This document shows, in pieces, positions 2,539 through 45,391 of a stretch of 46,180 bases of DNA. A model generated the notes under the pieces. It did not search any database and was not told the DNA's origin. It was given only the letters and a program-made list of their open reading frames with translations. Within the stretch, counting starts at the first letter, position 1. The number at the start of each line of letters is the position of its first letter. The stretch spans positions 1-46,180 of the forward strand of contig CAYZKT010000002.1 of the NCBI GenBank assembly GCA_964478885.1, in the 5' to 3' direction. Origin of the DNA: an uncultured Syntrophaceae bacterium. GTDB taxonomy: Bacteria; Desulfobacterota; Syntrophia; Syntrophales; UBA2192. The position numbers were made by a program, and so were the translations under genes.

Positions 2539-4350
2539 ATGAAAAAGGAGCACAAATTTTCCCTGTTCTACATTCTTCTGGCGGTCTGGGCGGTCCTGCT
2601 CATCCAGAGCTACCTCGCCTCCATGATGAGCTCGCAGGTCGTCCCCTACAGCCAGTTCCTGAAGCTGCTCAAGGAAGGCAAGGTCACCGAGGTGGCCATT
2701 TCGGCCAACCGCATCGAGGGGAAGATGAAGGTGGAAGGAAAACCCGGCGAGACGCAGACCTTCCGGACCAACCGGGTGGACCAGGACCTCTCGGAGCTGC
2801 TCGACAAGTACCAGGTAACCTTCAAGGGGGAGGTGGAGAGCACGTTCCTGCGCGACCTGTTCTCGTGGGTCTTCCCGATCGTGATCTTCTTCGGCATCTG
2901 GTACCTGCTCATGAAGCGCATGGGCGGGCAGCAGGCCGGCTTCATGACGCTGGGCAAGAGCAAGGCCAAGATCTACATGGAGAACGAGATCAAGATCACC
3001 TTCAAGGACGTGGCCGGCGTCGACGAAGCGAAGCAGGAGCTCCAGGAGGTCATCGAGTTTCTCAAGAACCCGAAGAAGTTCACGGGGCTCGGCGGCCGCA
3101 TTCCCAAGGGCATCCTTCTCGTGGGGCCCCCGGGGACAGGAAAGACCCTGCTCGCCAAGGCCGTGGCGGGAGAGAGCGCCGTTCCTTTCTTCAGCCTCAG
3201 CGGCTCCGAGTTTGTCGAGATGTTCGTCGGCCTGGGCGCGGCGCGGGTCCGGGACCTCTTCGACCAGGCAAAACAGAAGGCCCCCTGCATCATCTTCATC
3301 GACGAGCTCGACGCGCTCGGGAAGGCGCGCGGGTTCGCCATGCCGGGCGGCGGCCACGACGAGCGGGAACAAACCCTGAACCAGCTGCTGACCGAGATGG
3401 ACGGCTTCGACGCCAATGCGGGGGTCATCCTCATGGCCGCGACGAACCGGCCCGAGATCCTCGACCCGGCCCTGCTGAGGGCGGGGCGCTTCGACCGGCA
3501 CGTCCTCGTCGACCGTCCCGACAAGAAGGGCAGGGAGGACATCCTGAAGGTGCATGTCCGCAACGTGAAGCTCGGCTCCGACGTAGACCTGGAGAAGATC
3601 GCGGGCATGACGCCGGGCATGGTGGGCGCCGACCTGGCCAATCTCATCAACGAGGCCGCCCTGCTGGCCGTCCGGCACGATAAACAGGAAGTGGGGATGG
3701 CGGAATTCGTCGAGTCCATCGAGCGGGTCGTGGCAGGTCTCGAAAAGAAGAACCGCCTCATCAACCCCCAGGAGCGGGAGATCGTGGCCTACCACGAACT
3801 CGGCCACGCCATCGTCGCCCTGTCGCTGCCGGGGACGGACCCGGTACAGAAGATCTCGATCATTCCCCGCGGCATCGCCGCGCTGGGCTACACCATGCAG
3901 GCTCCCACGGAGGACCGCTTCCTCATGAAGAAGACGGAGCTCCTGAACCGTATCGCGACGCTCCTGGGCGGACGTGCCTCCGAGGAAACCGTGTTCGGCG
4001 ACATCTCCACGGGGGCGCACAACGACCTGGCCCGCGCCACGGACATCGCCCGCAGCATGGTCAAGGAGTACGGGATGAGTTCCGAGGTCGGGCAGGTCTA
4101 CTTTGCCCGGGAGAAGCGCTCCGCCTTCCTCGACACCATGGTCCCCGAGGGCGGCGACTACAGCGAGGCAACGGCGGAGCTCATCGACCGAGAGATCCGG
4201 ACCATCATCGATTCCCAGTACGCGGTTGCAAAGTCCATCCTTGCCGGCAAAAGGGTTGTCCTCGACCGGGGGGCGAAGCTTCTGCTGCAAAGGGAGAAGA
4301 TCGAGGGCTCGGAGTTGAAGGACCTCATGGACGGGAATGCGGCCTCCTGA
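2539..4350 (+). CDS. ftsH: ATP-dependent zinc metalloprotease FtsH
   Basis: 603 aa. N-terminal TM segment, Walker A GPPGTGKT, zinc site HELGHA, conserved AAA and M41 regions throughout. Confidence 0.97.
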
Positions 4351-20934: not shown

Positions 20935-22923
20935 CTAGTGCCGGACCGGGGAGTCCTCTCCGGATGAACTGCCCCCTTTACGTTTTCTCAGGGTCTGCGA
21001 GAGAAAAACGAGTAAAAAGAAGAAAAGACCGGCGACGTCGGTCATCCAGCCCGGTTTGATGAGCAGCAATGCAGCCGTCATGAGAGCCGCCGACTCGTAC
21101 CATGTCGCCCTGATCATCATGCAGCGCTGCACGGATGCCGCGAGACAGGCGACACCGAAGGCCGCCGTGCATGCGGCCAGAAGGATTGCCGGCCAGCTGC
21201 CGATCATCAGGAGTTCCGGGGCGTAGACGAACATGAAGGGGATGATGAACCCCGCGATGCCGAGCTGGAAGGCCGCTAACCCGGTCTTCCAGGGATCGGA
21301 CCGCGCGATTCCCGCTCCGGCATAGGCAGCCAGCGCAACGGGGGGTGTGATGTCGGCCCGCGTCCCGAAATAGAGGATGAACAGGTGGGCGGCGATGGCC
21401 AACACGCCCATGTCGACGAGCGCGGGCGCCACCAGCGACGTGATGATGATGTACTGTGCCGTCGTCGGAACGCCCATTCCCAGGAACAGGCAGGCGATCA
21501 TGGTGAAGGGCAGGGCGAGGAAGAGATACCCCTGGGAGGCGTCGACGACGAAGGACGAGAACTTGAGGCCCAGGCCCGTCATGGTGATGCTCCCGATGAT
21601 GATCCCCGCGGCCGCGCAGGCGGCGGCGACCTGGACCGACCCGATCGCCCCCTCCCGCAGCCCGTCCAGGATCGCCAGGCCGAAGTCCTTCAGGGATTCC
21701 CGCCTCACCAGCGCCATGACCAGCGAAGTGAGGACCGTCACGGTTATGGCCCAGAAGACGGCGCGCTCGGGTGAATAGTCCTCCATGAGGAAATAGATGA
21801 GCGCAAAGACGGAGAAGAGGTGGTGCCAGCCCCGCCCCAGCGTGTTGCGGATGCTGGGGAGCTCGGACTTGGGCAGACCCGTGAGGCCCAGAGACACGGC
21901 CCGAAAGTGAACCTGCATGAACGTGGCGAAGAAGGCCAGCGTCGCGGGGATAAACGCGGCCACACAAACCTTGAAGTAGGTGATTCCGAGGAACTCGGCC
22001 ATGATGAATGCCGCCGCACCCATGATCGGCGGCATGATCTGTCCCATTGTCGATGCCGAGGCCTCGACGCCCGCCGCGAAGTGGGCGGGATAGCCCGTTC
22101 GCTTCATCAGGGGGATCGTGAAGGAGCCCGTTGTCACCGTGTTGGCAACGGAACTGCCCGAGATCATGCCGAAGAACGTGCTCGATACGACGGCCGCCTT
22201 CGCCGGCCCTCCCCGGGCCCAACCTGTCAGAGCGAAGGCGATGTCCGTGAAGAATTCGCCCGCCCCTGTCTTTCGCAGCAGGGTTCCGTACAGGATGAAG
22301 AGCAGGATGAAGTTGGCCGAGACCCCGATCGGGACCCCGAAGATCCCGTCCGTCGACAACGCCAGGTAGGTCGAGAGCCGCTTGACGCTGTACCCTTTGT
22401 GCGAGATGACGTCCGGGAGCCAGGGACCGAGCAGGGCGTAGAGGATGAACACGATGGCGATCAGCGTGACTGATAGTCCCGTGGACCGCCTCGAGGCCTC
22501 CAGGACGAGGAGCACCATAAGGGATCCCATGACCACATCGAGGGTCTCGTAAGACCCGGCCCGGTTCATGATCGGCGTGGAGTAGAGGAAGAGCCAGATG
22601 CAGATGGCTCCCGACGCGACCAGGAAGACGCCGTCGAACACGGACATGCGATGCCACGGCGAGTGTTTCTTCGTCAGGGGGTAGAGGGCGAAGACGAGAA
22701 TGGACATGAAGAACCAGTGCAGGGCGCGGTGGTCGAGGGCGAAGAAGGGGTGCGTGTAGGCGTAGTACAGGTGGTAGAGGCTCGCCGCGACGGCGAAGAC
22801 GGTGAGCAGGACGTTTGCCGGCCCTTTGTAGGTCCGGACCCGTTCGAACTTTTCGAGGATTTCCTGGCCGCGCTTTTTCTCCTCCTCGAATTCGTGCTGG
22901 AGCGCTTTTTCGATTTCAGCCAT
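20935..22923 (-). CDS. TRAP transporter fused 4TM/12TM permease (TAXI-associated type)
   Basis: 662 aa, highly polytopic. Follows the TAXI receptor and DUF1850 genes in the same orientation. Confidence 0.9.
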   Translation of the reverse strand: MAEIEKALQHEFEEEKKRGQEILEKFERVRTYKGPANVLLTVFAVAASLYHLYYAYTHPFFALDHRALHWFFMSILVFALYPLTKKHSPWHRMSVFDGVFLVASGAICIWLFLYSTPIMNRAGSYETLDVVMGSLMVLLVLEASRRSTGLSVTLIAIVFILYALLGPWLPDVISHKGYSVKRLSTYLALSTDGIFGVPIGVSANFILLFILYGTLLRKTGAGEFFTDIAFALTGWARGGPAKAAVVSSTFFGMISGSSVANTVTTGSFTIPLMKRTGYPAHFAAGVEASASTMGQIMPPIMGAAAFIMAEFLGITYFKVCVAAFIPATLAFFATFMQVHFRAVSLGLTGLPKSELPSIRNTLGRGWHHLFSVFALIYFLMEDYSPERAVFWAITVTVLTSLVMALVRRESLKDFGLAILDGLREGAIGSVQVAAACAAAGIIIGSITMTGLGLKFSSFVVDASQGYLFLALPFTMIACLFLGMGVPTTAQYIIITSLVAPALVDMGVLAIAAHLFILYFGTRADITPPVALAAYAGAGIARSDPWKTGLAAFQLGIAGFIIPFMFVYAPELLMIGSWPAILLAACTAAFGVACLAASVQRCMMIRATWYESAALMTAALLLIKPGWMTDVAGLFFFLLVFLSQTLRKRKGGSSSGEDSPVRH

Positions 22924-22935
22924 GGGACCCCGAAC

Positions 22936-23406
22936 CTACCGTTTCGCGACTCGAAGTTGAAGGAGGCTCCCGCCCGGTGCAAGGTCGGTCAATGCAACCC
23001 GCGAATCGCCCGACTCAATCACCTGCCGGCAGACCCGGCCGACCCGGATCAGGAGGTCCTGGAAAGGCCTGTTTACAGCGACTCGCGTCCAGTCGCCGTC
23101 GAAGGAGATCCTCGCCTGCGGGTGCGATTCCAGCCCTGCTCCATACCACAGATACTGCTCTTCCAACAGGATGAAGTGACCGTCCCCCTCGACCCTGAAG
23201 ATGCCTCGAACGGGGGTCCCGTCGGAGGAGTGGGTATATTCGAGCCGGAAAAGACTCCCCGGCGCGACAGGCGCATGCCACAGCAGGCCGCCTTCCGGGT
23301 GGCTCAGGATCTCGAGCTGCAGGCCGCCCGTGCCCTCCGCAAGGCAGGAAGGGAGAGGCAACAGCAGGGATGCGGCAAGGACCAGTATCGCGATCGGGCG
23401 CATCAT
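22936..23406 (-). CDS. DUF1850-like small periplasmic/membrane-anchored protein typical of TAXI-TRAP operons
   Basis: 156 aa. Signal-like N-terminus MMRPIAILVLAASLLLPLPSCLA. Lies between receptor and permease. Family assignment is from memory of the operon context. Confidence 0.6.
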   Translation of the reverse strand: MMRPIAILVLAASLLLPLPSCLAEGTGGLQLEILSHPEGGLLWHAPVAPGSLFRLEYTHSSDGTPVRGIFRVEGDGHFILLEEQYLWYGAGLESHPQARISFDGDWTRVAVNRPFQDLLIRVGRVCRQVIESGDSRVALTDLAPGGSLLQLRVAKR

Positions 23407-23451: not shown

Positions 23452-24420
23452 CTACTTAAGCGCCTTGATTTCCTTGAAGTACTTCACCGAGCCGGGATGA
23501 AGGGCGATCGGGCTGTTGACGCCGTTTGCCGGCGTCAGCTGTGCCGCGACCGGGTGGATGTTGACAAGCGCGTACTTGCCCTCCTTGACGTTGCTGAAGA
23601 TGGCTTTCGTGATCTTGTACGCCACGTCGTCCGGCATCTTCTTGTTTGCCACGAGCACGTTGGAGTCGCCGAGGCAGAGGATATCTTTGTCCTGGCCGGG
23701 GTAGGTTTTGGCCGGGATGGTGTTCTTGATGTAGTACGGGTATTTCTTGATGATCCGGTCGGCATTGGCCCGATCGATGGGAACGAGCACGATCTCCCGC
23801 GAGGCCGCCAGATCGAGCACGGCGGAGCCCGGGTAGGCGAAGTTGAAGAACACGGCGTCGACGACCCCGTCCTTCAGGGCCTGAACGGACTCATTCTGCG
23901 AGAGGTTGGCGATGGTCACGTCCTTGTTGAGCGTGAATCCGTGCTCCTCGAGGATGATCTTCGCCATGTTGGCGCAGCCGCTGCCGGGAACATCGATGGA
24001 GACCTTCTTGCCCTTCAGATCCCTGATCGATTTGATCCCCGACTGCTTCGTCGTCACGATGTGCTCCGGTGCGGGGTACATCTGGAAGAGGGCGACGAGG
24101 GGGAGCTTCTCCTTGAAGGGGTCCTTGCCCTGGGTGGCGTTGTAGGCAATGCTGCCCATCACCATCCCCATGTCCGACTCCCCGCCTCCGACGAGGCGGC
24201 TGTTCTCGACGGACGCGCCCGTCGATTCCGATGCGCAGCGGAACCCTTCGACGGTCTTCTCGATGATGACCGCCATGCCCCCGCCGAGCGGATAGTAGGC
24301 GCCGCCGGGGCTGCCGGACGAGAGCGTGAGGAACGTTTTCCGTTGTGCCAGGGCATCGTCCCCGCCGGTCAGCGCGAGGACGAGCATGACGGCCGCGACG
24401 CACAGGAGAGCTCGTTTCAT
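23452..24420 (-). CDS. TAXI-family TRAP transporter solute receptor
   Basis: 322 aa. Signal peptide, then TLSSGSPGGAYYPLGGGMA, typical of TAXI (TIGR02122-like) receptors. Confidence 0.9.
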   Translation of the reverse strand: MKRALLCVAAVMLVLALTGGDDALAQRKTFLTLSSGSPGGAYYPLGGGMAVIIEKTVEGFRCASESTGASVENSRLVGGGESDMGMVMGSIAYNATQGKDPFKEKLPLVALFQMYPAPEHIVTTKQSGIKSIRDLKGKKVSIDVPGSGCANMAKIILEEHGFTLNKDVTIANLSQNESVQALKDGVVDAVFFNFAYPGSAVLDLAASREIVLVPIDRANADRIIKKYPYYIKNTIPAKTYPGQDKDILCLGDSNVLVANKKMPDDVAYKITKAIFSNVKEGKYALVNIHPVAAQLTPANGVNSPIALHPGSVKYFKEIKALK

Positions 24421-24584
24421 AATCCCACCTCCATTCTGGTATTGCCTGTTTTTATAGCGGCTGATACCGGATCCGTCCAGCTTTTTCGAGGCTCGAACGG
24501 TGGAACGGCCGAGAGGCGCGCAGGCGCATGGCAGGAGTTCGAAAAAAAACGGTCAAAAGGGCGCAGATGCGGGGTGCCCTGAAA

Positions 24585-24604
24585 GGATGGAAGTTAGGAA
24601 GCTG
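24585..24604. repeat. partial copy of the GAAG-repeat element
   Basis: ggatggaagttaggaag (24585-24601) is identical over 17 nt to 30363-30379. Lies immediately 3' of the DapB-like ORF. Confidence 0.6.
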
Positions 24605-24616
24605 CACAGTTTCTTC

Positions 24617-25150
24617 TTACTTCAGGCCGAGGACGTCCTGCATGTCGTACAGCCCATTCTTCTGTTTCACAATCCACTTCGCGGCGGCGATGGCCTCGCG
24701 GGCGAAGGTGTCCCGGATGAAGGAGCGGTAGATCAGCTCCACCCCGGCGCCCATTTCGCTGAAGAGGGCCGGGCTCACATTCGGCACGAGGACGCAGCGC
24801 GTCTTTTTCGTCAATTCCCGGATGCGCTCCATCTCGTCGAGCATGAACCCCATGGTCCCCATCACCATGGAGGTCTTGAACTCGGCGGCAATGCGCAGAT
24901 GGGCAAGGGACGATTCCTTGTCCGTGAAGTCGATGACCACGCAGCTGTTCCGGATGCAATCGCGTAAATCGTCCACGACAGGCACGCCAAAGAAGCCCAT
25001 GCGATTGAACTCGCCGGCATCCTGCCCGACAAAGTGGCTTCCCTTGACGTCCACGGCCCCGATCAGCTCGATGCCGTCCGTCTCGTTGACGAACTGCATC
25101 AGCCTTGCCCCCATCTTGCTGCTCACGCCCGTCACAATCGCCTTGACCAT
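24617..25150 (-). CDS. DapB (4-hydroxy-tetrahydrodipicolinate reductase)-like protein with an in-frame internal deletion of the catalytic/substrate domain; possible pseudogene or neofunctionalised remnant
   Basis: 177 aa from MVKAIVTG (ATG 25148-25150). Both ends align with DapB: GIELIGAVD..VGQDAGEF, VVIDFT, MGTMGF, and C-terminal FAREAIAAAKWIVKQKNGLYDMQDVLGL. The E-x-H-H-x2-K-x-D-x-P-S-G-T-A block is absent, and GxxGxxG reads GVSSKMG. Confidence 0.7.
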   Translation of the reverse strand: MVKAIVTGVSSKMGARLMQFVNETDGIELIGAVDVKGSHFVGQDAGEFNRMGFFGVPVVDDLRDCIRNSCVVIDFTDKESSLAHLRIAAEFKTSMVMGTMGFMLDEMERIRELTKKTRCVLVPNVSPALFSEMGAGVELIYRSFIRDTFAREAIAAAKWIVKQKNGLYDMQDVLGLK

Positions 25151-25328
25151 GGCTTTCCTCTCTTCCGACCCCGTCCTCTCTATACATGCAACGGAGCCGT
25201 TAACGCAGCCCTTTGTCGGGTGCGGGACCAAGGAGCGGCAAAACGGGGACCGACCGTCCGTGTCGTGTCAGACCTCCGGGTTCCCGCAACACGAGCCGCC
25301 CCCGGGGCTTGCGTCCGCAGTGGCACGG

Positions 25329-25344
25329 AGCAAGAGGGGTGCCA
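25329..25344 (-). promoter_or_regulatory. sigma54 (-24/-12) promoter, perfect consensus, facing the DapB-like gene and TAXI-TRAP genes
   Basis: Minus strand reads TGGCAC-CCCTC-TTGCT (consensus TGGCAC-N5-TTGCW), about 180 nt upstream of ATG 25150. Confidence 0.6.
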
Positions 25345-25498
25345 GAGACATGAAATTTCAAAAGGGTTCGATATAAATGGGGAAAGAGCATTCGGGCAGG
25401 AATCTCGGAGGAGGGGAAACCTCACAAAAATGTAGTACCGGCCCCGGGAGCAGACAAAATCGTCTGCCATGCGCTGCGACGGGCCGGTGCGGCGGGCT

Positions 25499-25530
25499 CC
25501 GCATCCCGGCGCCCGGGCACCGGGATGCGG
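25499..25530 (-). terminator. strong hairpin downstream of glnK (no clear U-tract)
   Basis: 11-bp perfect stem CCGCATCCCGG / CCGGGATGCGG with a 10-nt loop, about 55 nt after the glnK stop. Confidence 0.3.
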
Positions 25531-25584
25531 GAAGGTGCGGCTTCCTTCCCGAAACCCGATGCCCGAATCCCGCTTCCCGTCGGT

Positions 25585-25926
25585 TTACCCGATCGCCTGA
25601 CCGCCCCGCTCTGACGTGCGGATCCGGATGACGTCCGGGAGGTCCAGGACGAAGATCTTCCCGTCGCCGATCTCCCCGGTCCGGGCGCTCCGGGTGATGG
25701 CCTGGATGGTGGGTTCCACGAAGTCCTCGTTGACGGCGATCTCGAGTTTCACCTTCTTGAGAAGGCTCCCCGCTTCCTTCGCGCCCCGGTAGACTTCCGT
25801 CACCCCCATCTGCCGGCCCCTGCCGAGTACGTTGGAGACGGTCATCAGGTTCACGTCGACGTCTTCGAGCGCTTTCATCACGTCGTCGAGCTTGTGCGGT
25901 TTGATGATGGCGATGATGTATTTCAT
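25585..25926 (-). CDS. glnK: P-II nitrogen regulatory protein (GlnK type, amt-linked)
   Basis: 113 aa. [16 protein letters not shown]...[15 protein letters not shown]...[11 protein letters not shown]. Starts 12 nt after amt. Confidence 0.93.
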
Positions 25927-25938
25927 GGTCTCAGCCTC

Positions 25939-27174
25939 CTAGTCCACCAGGGTGTAGGCCGACTCGCTGTGCTGGGTCAGGTCCAGACCGACGATCTCCT
26001 TGGTCTTTTCCACCCGGACGCACATCAGGGAGTCGACGAGCTTGAAGATGGCCCAGGTCATGGCCGCCGCGAAGACAACCGTCACCAGCACGAGCATGCA
26101 CTGCACCCCGAAGAGCTGGGCGTTGCCGAAGAGCAGCCCGTTGGCGCCGGCCTCGTTGACGGCCTTCTCGGCGAAAAGACCCGTGGCCAGCGTTCCCCAG
26201 ATGCCGCCGACGCCGTGGATTCCGAAGACGTCGAGCGAATCGTCATACTTGAAGAACGACTTCACCCTGGCGATGGCGAGGTAGCAGAAGACGCTCGCGA
26301 ACATCCCGATGAAGATGGCGTTCATGGGGTTGACGAAGCCGCAGGCCGGGGTGATCGCGACCAATCCTGCCACCGCACCGGACACGGCGCCCAGGGCGGT
26401 GGGGGCCTTGTGCGTCATCCACTCGATGACGGCCCAGGTCAGCCCCGCCGCCGCCGTGGCGACCGTCGTGGTCACGAAGGCGTTGGCCGCAAGCTCGTTG
26501 GCCGCCAGGGCGCTCCCCGCGTTGAACCCAAACCAGCCGAACCACAGCAGGGCGCCTCCCAGCACGGTGAAGGGAAGGTTGTGCGGCGTGAAGGTCCTCT
26601 TCTCATACCCGATTCTCCGGCCGATCAGCAGGGCGAGCACCAGGGCCGAGATGCCCGAGCTGGTGTGGACCACGATCCCCCCGGCGAAGTCGAGAGCCCC
26701 GAGGTCCCGGAGCCATCCGCCCATTCCCCAGACCCAGTGTCCGAGCGGGTTGTACACGAAGGTGGCCCAGAGGACGGTGAACGCCAGGAACGCGGAGAAC
26801 TTGATCCGCTCGGCGTAGGTCCCGATGATCAGGGCCGGCGTGATCACCGCGAACATGCATTGGAAAATCATGAAGGCGTAGTGCGGGATCGTGGCCGCGT
26901 AATCGGTGTTGGGCTGCATACCCACGTTCCGCAGCCCGGCCCAGTCGAGGCCGCCGATGATCCCCTTGTACGCGTCGGGGCCGAAGGTCAGGGAGTAGCC
27001 GTAGAGCACCCACTGCAGCGTGATGACGCAAAGGATGATCAGGCACTGCATCAGGATGGAAAGGACGTTTTTCCTTCTCACGAGCCCGCCGTAGAAAAAG
27101 GCCAGTCCGGGGATGGTCATGAGAAGAACGAGTGCCGACGATATGAGCACCCATGCGGTGTCGCCCGAGTTCAT
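25939..27174 (-). CDS. amt: ammonium transporter (Amt family)
   Basis: 411 aa. GDTAWVLISSALVLLMTIPGLAFFYGGLVRRKN, DFAGGIVVHTSSG, GFNAGSA, GIHGVGGIWG. Confidence 0.95.
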   Translation of the reverse strand: MNSGDTAWVLISSALVLLMTIPGLAFFYGGLVRRKNVLSILMQCLIILCVITLQWVLYGYSLTFGPDAYKGIIGGLDWAGLRNVGMQPNTDYAATIPHYAFMIFQCMFAVITPALIIGTYAERIKFSAFLAFTVLWATFVYNPLGHWVWGMGGWLRDLGALDFAGGIVVHTSSGISALVLALLIGRRIGYEKRTFTPHNLPFTVLGGALLWFGWFGFNAGSALAANELAANAFVTTTVATAAAGLTWAVIEWMTHKAPTALGAVSGAVAGLVAITPACGFVNPMNAIFIGMFASVFCYLAIARVKSFFKYDDSLDVFGIHGVGGIWGTLATGLFAEKAVNEAGANGLLFGNAQLFGVQCMLVLVTVVFAAAMTWAIFKLVDSLMCVRVEKTKEIVGLDLTQHSESAYTLVD

Positions 27175-27222: not shown

Positions 27223-27238
27223 GGCAAATAGGGTGCCA
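27223..27238 (-). promoter_or_regulatory. sigma54 (-24/-12) promoter, perfect consensus, for amt-glnK
   Basis: Minus strand reads TGGCAC-CCTAT-TTGCC, about 50 nt upstream of ATG 27174. An AT-rich island lies immediately upstream. Confidence 0.6.
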
Positions 27239-30085: not shown

Positions 30086-30350
30086 AAAAAAAACCGCCAG
30101 TCGAACACGAGGTTCGACTGGCGGCCCGACCATGCCTTATCTGTCACCTCCGGAACGCAGCATCGTTCCGGACCCGAAAGCTATTCAATTTCGGCTTGTT
30201 CTTACCACACCCGCAGGCACACGACAAGAACAAATTGCGTGAATCCCGACGAACGCGGCAGCGGGTTCCTTCTCAATATTTGTTCCGCTTCGCGGCGCTC
30301 CTCGGTCACCTGCTATTCCAAATCGGTCTCGTCAAAAAGGGTTAGATGCG
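30086..30350 (-). ncRNA. candidate structured RNA A (sRNA or leader element) ending in an intrinsic terminator; 5' end not defined
   Basis: Terminator: perfect 13-bp stem CCGCCAGTCGAAC / GTTCGACTGGCGG (30094-30124) plus 8 U (30086-93). Internal hairpin at 30149-30172. No credible ORF. Confidence 0.35.
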
Positions 30351-43762: not shown

Positions 43763-45286
<1,524 letters not shown>

Positions 45287-45361
45287 GTTCTGTCCTGACA
45301 GGCTCGGCAATTACACGTTTGTTCCTATAACGAAAAACAGCACAAAAAACAAGGATTCATC

Positions 45362-45375
45362 TTGTACATGTACAA
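45362..45375. promoter_or_regulatory. perfect 14-bp palindrome TTGTACATGTACAA in the divergent intergenic region (candidate operator)
   Basis: Read directly. Lies between the activator gene (minus) and the VIT-domain gene (plus). Confidence 0.25.
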
Positions 45376-45391
45376 AATTGTCACGTGAAGA

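Follow-up and report, generated by a model that had tools for sequence, protein, structure and literature searches.

A short DapB paralogue without the catalytic core as a probable accessory of the amt-glnK module in Syntrophaceae

DapB, the 4-hydroxy-tetrahydrodipicolinate reductase, consists of a cofactor domain (residues 1-127 and 235-264) that is connected by two hinges to a substrate-binding and tetramerisation domain (residues 128-234), the tetramer being formed via the sheet of this C-terminal domain (PMC5962572). Gly8, Gly11 and Gly14 make up the G-x-x-G-x-x-G loop, and Thr100 holds the nicotinamide ribose (PMC5962572). Here we describe mini-DapB, a 177-aa short paralogue of this enzyme encoded behind an amt-glnK pair in DNA of an uncultured Syntrophaceae bacterium (GTDB lineage Bacteria; Desulfobacterota; Syntrophia; Syntrophales; UBA2192). 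The analysed DNA, called the window throughout, comprises 46,180 nt (assembly GCA_964478885.1, contig CAYZKT010000002.1, positions 1-46,180 of the forward strand).

PII/GlnK signalling is among the most widespread regulatory systems of microorganisms, and its output partners are lineage-specific. To our knowledge, these partners are mostly unknown outside a few model organisms, and we know of none for bacteria of syntrophic, methanogenic consortia such as Syntrophales. The comparisons reported below make it probable that mini-DapB is a functional, non-catalytic DapB paralogue serving as an accessory or regulatory member of the module formed by Amt, GlnK and glutamine synthetase (GS).

Domain composition and predicted fold of mini-DapB

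A first reading of the window from its sequence alone had described an open reading frame (ORF) that matches DapB at both ends and stays in frame, with about 90 central residues, including the catalytic signature, missing. Profile searches and alignment to DapB confirmed this description. Pfam DapB_N (PF01113) was complete (residues 3-124 matching profile positions 2-123 of 124, E 3.5e-29), while only the last 57 positions of DapB_C (PF05173) were found (residues 118-174 matching profile positions 65-121 of 121, E 3.2e-7) and the catalytic block was not recovered by this search. The DapB equivalog model TIGR00036 returned 110.9 bits, below its cut-off of 122, in two pieces covering positions 2-132 and 224-270 of 270. 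In the alignment to P. aeruginosa DapB (4YWJ), residues 4-126 corresponded to 12-135 and residues 127-177 to 226-276, so that exactly 90 residues are gone in frame.

Compared with Syntrophales DapB, to which mini-DapB is about 50% identical over the retained parts, the gap takes out two helices and the strands bearing EAHH..KKDAPSGTA (E-x-H-H-x2-K-K-D-A-P-S-G-T-A). Every substrate-site column that is 100% conserved in full-length DapB is a gap in mini-DapB, which has no complete DapB_C domain with its substrate/catalytic block and tetramer sheet. Both segments of the cofactor domain are retained, and of the inserted domain only about 15 residues survive, the former last two strands. The Gly loop had also been called degenerate, correctly so: it reads G8-V-S-S11-K-M-G14, with Ser at the middle position where all 84 full-length relatives have Gly, and position 100 is occupied by Met instead of Thr.

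The start of the protein was assigned to the ATG at 25150, from which it begins MVKAIVTGVSSKMG, with a GAGG Shine-Dalgarno sequence at approximately 25157-25160. An alternative TTG start at 25231 (204 aa) was ruled out, as all homologues begin MVKAIV or MIKIIV with the conserved GAGG located just 5'.

The AlphaFold2 (AF2) model of mini-DapB, calculated from a 102-sequence alignment, predicted a single domain with the fold of the DapB N-domain, showing a predicted local distance difference test score (pLDDT) of 92.1 and a predicted template-modelling score (pTM) of 0.88; the model was weak only at residues 121-140 (pLDDT 66-71). When this model was submitted to Foldseek, the top matches were all DapB proteins (4YWJ, E 2e-14, template-modelling (TM) score 0.83 on the query); amine dehydrogenases, which have the same N-domain, came next.

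The same genome was found to encode a true dapB on another contig, within a dapA-dapB-aminotransferase cluster (TIGR00036, 295.8 bits), and a real dapB was also present in all five of the other mini-DapB carriers checked. Since the genome holds a normal dapB, the short form is an extra paralogue.

Distribution of the short forms and selection acting on them

A search of 5.8 billion proteins returned many clusters of 177 aa with identities of 73-99% as well as a further set of 178-aa proteins at 53-56%, after which the next matches were full-length DapBs. We refer to these 177/178-aa proteins as clades 1 and 2, and to a still shorter form of 158-160 aa as clade 3. Clades 1 and 2 have an identical deletion boundary, VP(N/D)VS|P, and were monophyletic with a support of 100/99 when the tree was computed with the junction columns excluded. 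Using a degenerate DNA pattern that matches a peptide specific to the short form, 15 species-representative genomes were retrieved, all of them Syntrophaceae or Syntrophales metagenome-assembled genomes. Among 151 sampled genomes, which represent 24 families of the order, the 177/178-aa form was confined to the window's own family. Of the family's 22 species genomes, 17 carry this form, 16 of them as an intact copy, and it is by no means unique to the window genome. The seventeenth copy (L022, G161:C36:64138-64666) is a clade-1 mini-DapB that is split over two frames and contains one TGA near residues 36-50; both PII genes are still present in its genome, and the break is either a recent event or an assembly error.

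Clade 3 was represented in the 151-genome sample by a 158-aa DapB-like ORF in two genomes of another Syntrophales family, with relatives of the same length down to 47% identity; members of the clade lie in L034 (2448-2924, minus strand) and L037 (8001-8477). In these proteins the whole C-domain is excised and APSV joins the C-terminal helix directly, the leftover strands being gone; the model is a compact domain with pLDDT 96.0 and pTM 0.92. On the free tree clade 3 formed a group of its own (91/84) apart from clades 1 and 2, and the monophyly of all short forms was not rejected by the approximately unbiased (AU) test (p = 0.38). The short forms share synteny (amt-glnK-glnA-Band_7-mini) and FTD[KR]E..HLKTAS residues, a hint that they have one origin. 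Either two separate domain excisions or a single one with later trimming may have produced the short forms.

The selection acting on mini-DapB was evaluated from the ratio of non-synonymous to synonymous substitutions (dN/dS) by the Nei-Gojobori method, and dapB of the same genus was measured identically. Comparison of the window gene with its clade-1 orthologues gave values of 0.06-0.13 at dS 0.36-1.2, to be compared with 0.07-0.14 for full-length dapB. By this measure, mini-DapB is shown to be under purifying selection as strong as that on real dapB. Between two genera the values were 0.2-0.36 for mini-DapB, with dS saturated, and 0.12-0.21 for dapB.

These results bear directly on the nature of the gene, which had been proposed to be either a decaying pseudogene or a repurposed non-catalytic domain. 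As a pseudogene, mini-DapB would be the remnant of a duplicated dapB left open by chance; the loss of the catalytic core and the degenerate Gly loop would fit such an origin, as would the dispensability of the gene in some relatives and the interrupted copy described above. This explanation is refuted by the selection data, with low dN/dS at dS up to about 1.2. In addition, intact copies of unchanged length occur in 16 of the family's 22 species genomes as well as in many metagenome clusters, and a true relic in one genome of the family (G031, see below) looks quite different. The repurposed non-catalytic domain fits all the evidence. As an enzyme homologue under purifying selection from which the catalytic residues are absent, mini-DapB is, on these sequence comparisons, a pseudoenzyme.

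The distribution of the constraint along the protein differs from that of DapB. Between genera, the Rossmann part is 47-48% identical in mini-DapB against 63-70% in full-length DapB and the leftover strands 20-33% against 80%, while the last 36 residues reach 94-100% against 75-81%. Within clade 1, residues 127-177 showed a dN/dS of 0-0.03 at dS 0.35-0.85, and residues 139-177 compared with the clade-2 member L004 gave 0.01-0.08, with a dS between clades of about 0.8-1.5; the C-terminal part has accumulated 0-2 non-synonymous and 10-18 synonymous changes. As the synonymous sites of this stretch diverge freely (dS about 0.35-1.5), the constraint acts on the protein and not on the DNA. The frozen stretch also departs from DapB at particular positions (RSFIRDTFAREAIAAAKW in mini-DapB versus RAHSRDNFAKGAIRAAKW in DapB), and these residues unlike full-length DapB, together with the free synonymous divergence, ruled out nucleotide-level constraint or gene conversion as its cause. 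The shift suggests that the old tetramer and catalytic roles were lost and that the C-terminal helix-strand surface gained a new one, probably the binding of a protein.

The amt-glnK neighbourhood and the sigma54-type element

The coordinates of mini-DapB, its parts and its neighbours are listed in Table 1. The first reading had located the gene between amt-glnK and a TAXI-TRAP transporter, and this is its position in the window; among relatives the amt-glnK link proved to be conserved and the TAXI-TRAP link did not. A glnK gene is present upstream of mini-DapB wherever the sequence of the locus extends far enough, and the adjacency to amt-glnK is common to clades 1, 2 and 3, sometimes with glnA, Band_7 or glutamate synthase (GOGAT) genes. 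In clade 1 the order is carB, a purF-like gene, amt-PII (128 aa), amt-PII (113 aa) and mini-DapB, followed by a variable gene. Clade 2 shows carB, a purF-like gene, amt, PII (113 aa), glnA, Band_7, a divergent Gly-zipper gene and mini-DapB, and a sigma54 activator gene follows after another 2.6 kb. Three arrangements occur in clade 3: amt-PII (113 aa) separated by a 40-nt gap from mini-DapB, which is followed by a Fer4/Glu_synthase gene; amt-PII-glnA-Band_7-mini-DapB followed by archaeal-type split glutamate synthase genes; and PII then mini-DapB.

Table 1. Features of the mini-DapB locus and its surroundings in the window
Feature	Position	Strand	Evidence or remark
mini-DapB coding sequence, 177 aa + stop	24617..25150	-	ORF, Pfam, alignment to DapB, AF2, Foldseek
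Rossmann part up to VPNVS, residues 1-126; GVSSKMG (Gly11->Ser), GTTGF->GTMGF (Thr100->Met)	24773..25150	-	Pfam, alignment
Deletion junction, between codons 126 and 127	between 24773 and 24772	-	
Remnant of the last two C-domain strands, residues 127-141, now a variable low-confidence linker	24728..24772	-	identity, pLDDT
C-terminal helix + strand packing back on the Rossmann domain, residues 142-177 (RSFIRDTFAREAIAAAKWIVKQKNGLYDMQDVLGLK)	24620..24727	-	near-frozen, clades 1 and 2
sigma54-type -24/-12 element TGGCAC-CCCTC-TTGCT (TGGCACCCCTCTTGCT)	25344..25329	-	pattern search; kept in relatives
Candidate activator region, two ACRNTTTTGT copies (25454-25463, 25424-25433)	25424..25467	-	motif count
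glnK-type PII, 113 aa	25585..25926	-	upstream of mini-DapB; invariant companion
amt, ammonium transporter of the amt-glnK pair	25939..27174	-	upstream
Second exact TGGCAC-N5-TTGC	27238..27224	-	about 50 nt before amt; kept in L008, L010, L011, L013, L014
TAXI receptor	23452..24420	-	downstream of mini-DapB
DUF1850	22936..23406	-	downstream
Fused TRAP permease	20935..22923	-	downstream

The co-occurrence with PII, scored as PF00543, was assessed in the 22 species genomes of the family. PII was present in exactly the same 17 genomes as mini-DapB, a concordance of 22/22; the remaining five have neither PII nor an intact mini-DapB, four of them being without any copy and G031 bearing a relic. The absence of any PII gene is unusual for free-living bacteria; three of the five PII-less genomes (G009, G158, G162, G031 and G096) are 99-100% complete. 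In G009 the purF-like gene abuts the amylase-like gene directly and the entire amt-glnK block is absent, so that this genome is uninformative on dependency.

G031 has lost amt-PII-glnA-Band_7 from the interval that separates purF from the Gly-zipper gene. The neighbours of the relic are intact, the Gly-zipper gene at 80% identity and a 518-aa gene on the other side at 86%. The clade-2 relic itself (L032, G031:C46, approximately 2600-3140) has lost its start, its first 100 nt or so cannot be aligned, the codon of the invariant Cys119 is changed from TGC to TGA and a 2-nt deletion occurs near the end; its nucleotide identity is 68%, compared with 85% among intact orthologues. No other observation hints as strongly as this decay that mini-DapB serves a purpose only alongside Amt, GlnK, GS or Band_7.

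The same decay occurred although dapB remains in the genome, a point against a second explanation in which mini-DapB would regulate the real DapB, as a mixed oligomer or decoy, and tune diaminopimelate/lysine synthesis to the nitrogen supply. Such a function is suggested by its being a paralogue of the target, by the coexistence of dapB in every carrier checked and by the nitrogen-type locus. We consider it distinctly unlikely, since most of the sheet by which DapB tetramerises (PMC5962572) is gone from clades 1 and 2 and all of it from clade 3, the leftover strands are the least conserved part of the protein, and the gene never adjoins dapA or dapB.

On the downstream side, TAXI-TRAP follows mini-DapB in 7 of 13 clade-1 loci; in the others its place is taken by an amylase-like gene or by a dehydrogenase gene in convergent orientation. 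About half of the clade-1 species have the cassette, a variable insertion that separates mini-DapB from the amylase-like gene. Mini-DapB could be an accessory or leader gene of a TAXI-TRAP operon for the uptake of a nitrogen-containing substrate: in the window the genes lie on the same strand with a 196-nt gap, they are possibly co-transcribed, and the arrangement recurs in several relatives. A search of 24300-25700 returned neither a terminator-like site nor a sigma70-like promoter. This role appears very improbable, as 6 of the 13 clade-1 loci and every clade-2 and clade-3 locus lack TAXI-TRAP downstream and nevertheless have an intact mini-DapB.

The gene contexts of clade 3 are relevant to another alternative, namely that the protein is still an NAD(P)H-dependent oxidoreductase acting on another small substrate or on a substrate site supplied by a partner, for example in an archaeal-type GOGAT/GS cluster. 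The GOGAT genes adjoining clade 3 encode Fer4+Glu_synthase, Fer4, Pyr_redox_2, GATase_2 and GXGXG proteins; clade 2 retains GxxGxxG, the acidic residue after strand 2, DFT and GTTGF; and the amine dehydrogenases matched by Foldseek share the domain fold. The substrate and acid-base residues of DapB are all missing, however, and the cofactor invariants are relaxed clade by clade. Position 11 is Ser/Thr in clade 1, Gly in clade 2 and mostly Arg in clade 3; position 124 changes from Asn to Asp in clade 2 and to Ser/Tyr/Gln in clade 3; and Asp74 is replaced by Gly in half of clade 3. Thr100, the contact of the nicotinamide ribose (PMC5962572), is kept in clade 2 and replaced by Met in clade 1 and by Lys/Arg/Gly, mostly Lys/Arg, in clade 3. 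Moreover, a flavin-less Rossmann domain cannot feed Fe-S proteins. On balance, a retained oxidoreductase activity is unlikely.

Finally, we considered the -24/-12 element that had been reported to point at the ORF. Its sequence shows GG at -24 and GC at -12 in the canonical spacing, and it is correctly oriented and upstream of mini-DapB; from the GC at -13/-12, transcription would start near 25318 and leave a leader of about 168 nt. The window contains two exact TGGCAC-N5-TTGC sites, and when one mismatch was allowed 5 were found against 2.5 expected, so that the count alone is not significant and the support comes from conservation in relatives. Indeed, TGGCAY-N5-TTGCT is kept in 11 of 14 clade-1 species, 120-345 nt from the ATG, as an island amid strongly diverged intergenic DNA. 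In two of the three exceptions, mini-DapB follows glnK at a distance of just 127-160 nt and is probably transcribed by read-through from amt-glnK. In the third locus (L017, approximately 450-970) the element is missing and the 3' end of an activator-like gene (Fis-type helix-turn-helix (HTH), ...AAKLLGTSQRIVNYKIHKYGLD) lies between glnK and mini-DapB.

Upstream of the element, the two ACRNTTTTGT copies lie approximately 106 and 136 nt before the predicted start, the first inside the dyad GCAGAC-N6-GTCTGC (25450-25467), whose AC-N6-GT cores align in relatives. The motif occurs three times in the window against 0.21 expected. The third copy (45372-45381, minus strand) is located beside the 14-bp palindrome TTGTACATGTACAA, 62 nt before a GAF-AAA+-HTH_8 sigma54 activator gene (43763..45310, minus strand). 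As a lead, the product of this gene is a possible candidate for the cognate activator and may be autoregulated; the genome encodes 25 activators. Control by nitrogen through sigma54 had been proposed for the locus: the sigma54 element is conserved, and the link to nitrogen is suggested only by the position behind amt-glnK; the candidate upstream motif differs from the sequence before the amt promoters.

A structured leader RNA was also considered and dropped: Rfam at the gathering threshold returned no match within the 168-nt leader, and the leader varies among relatives in both length (approximately 100-330 nt) and sequence. The only Rfam match in the window was an nhaA-I riboswitch (42.5 bits, 30117-30175, minus strand) between the purF-like gene and amt.

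Proposed role and comparison with described systems

Taken together, mini-DapB is conserved, selected, limited to a small number of Syntrophales lineages, always found in an amt-glnK cluster and lost or decayed with this cluster, which argues for a non-enzymatic helper of nitrogen assimilation. An old in-frame deletion removed 90 residues of the C-terminal domain, those that bind the substrate, carry the catalytic His-His-Lys and form the tetramer, and left a dinucleotide-binding domain of two segments, residues 1-126 and the C-terminal helix and strand. Such a protein would not make tetrahydrodipicolinate. Its frozen C-terminal surface probably binds a protein partner, with GlnK as the first candidate and GS as the second, and the sensing of a nucleotide, for example NAD(P)(H), may have been retained. 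In clade 1 the protein would be made from its own sigma54 promoter, as judged from the sequence, and its expression would then probably vary together with that of amt-glnK.

These proposals differ in strength. An accessory or regulatory role in the Amt/GlnK/GS module exerted by partner binding is the one we favour. Direct binding of GlnK and the sensing of a nucleotide are each plausible at a tentative level. Somewhat more doubtful is the specific idea that mini-DapB is an unrecognised receptor or adaptor of a GlnK-type PII or of glutamine synthetase, through which a dinucleotide or redox signal would reach the uptake and assimilation of ammonium. The evidence pointing to PII and GS consists of gene order, co-occurrence and decay after the loss of the cluster.

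Several observations weigh against an accessory or regulatory role in the module. The 113-aa GlnK type occurs in 93 of the 151 genomes of the order, mostly without mini-DapB; GlnK therefore does not need mini-DapB and the dependence is one-way. The shared loss with PII could partly reflect physical linkage, the block of G009 being simply absent, and there are only about two independent loss lineages among relatives that are themselves not independent. The NAD(P)H-contact invariants (Gly11, Thr100, Asn124 and Asp74) are broken differently in each clade, which makes a common ligand uncertain. A sigma54 element of their own was not found in the clade-2 and clade-3 loci searched. Moreover, ACRNTTTTGT is absent before the amt promoters, and given this absence and the number of activators in the genome, nitrogen control is no more than suggested by position.

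The accessory role favoured here would make mini-DapB a concrete candidate for a PII partner: a small soluble protein with a confident model, a natural decay experiment and three clades to compare. It also offers a clean case of an essential two-domain enzyme converted into a stand-alone domain protein by excision at the hinges. Public databases label the short forms "4-hydroxy-tetrahydrodipicolinate reductase" or "dihydrodipicolinate reductase", which is a systematic mis-annotation; the former label is wrong for pathway reconstruction and should not be carried by mini-DapB. A literature search returned no paper tying DapB-like proteins to GlnK/Amt or describing a truncated DapB.

Among described proteins, the nearest is DapB itself (TIGR00036, EC 1.17.1.8; P. 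aeruginosa 4YWJ, E. coli 1ARZ), with which mini-DapB shares the N-domain fold (TM score on the query about 0.8) and the C-terminal NGLYDMQDVLGL motif. It differs from DapB by the absence of 90 residues and of all catalytic residues, by a sub-cut-off score, by the replacement of several cofactor-contact invariants, by a redistributed pattern of constraint and by an amt-glnK instead of a dapA-dapB context. The Arabidopsis protein CRR1, which is DapB-like and needed for the chloroplast NADH dehydrogenase-like (NDH) complex, is a further DapB homologue recruited outside lysine synthesis. Unlike mini-DapB, it keeps both domains and is a plant protein with no known link to nitrogen genes, and the likeness is one of description only. 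A functional analogy, with no homology claimed, is provided by the dead Rossmann regulators of the NmrA type in fungal nitrogen metabolite repression, non-catalytic dehydrogenase-derived proteins that bind a partner (AreA) and dinucleotides; NmrA belongs to a branch resembling the short-chain dehydrogenases/reductases and is eukaryotic, and the Foldseek matches of mini-DapB were limited to DapB and amine dehydrogenases. As small, lineage-restricted modulators of nitrogen assimilation that are encoded with PII or GS or co-regulated with them and act by protein binding, PipX, PirC, the GS inactivating factors IF7/IF17 and the archaeal sP26 have folds unrelated to that of mini-DapB and represent the kind of role that we consider for it.

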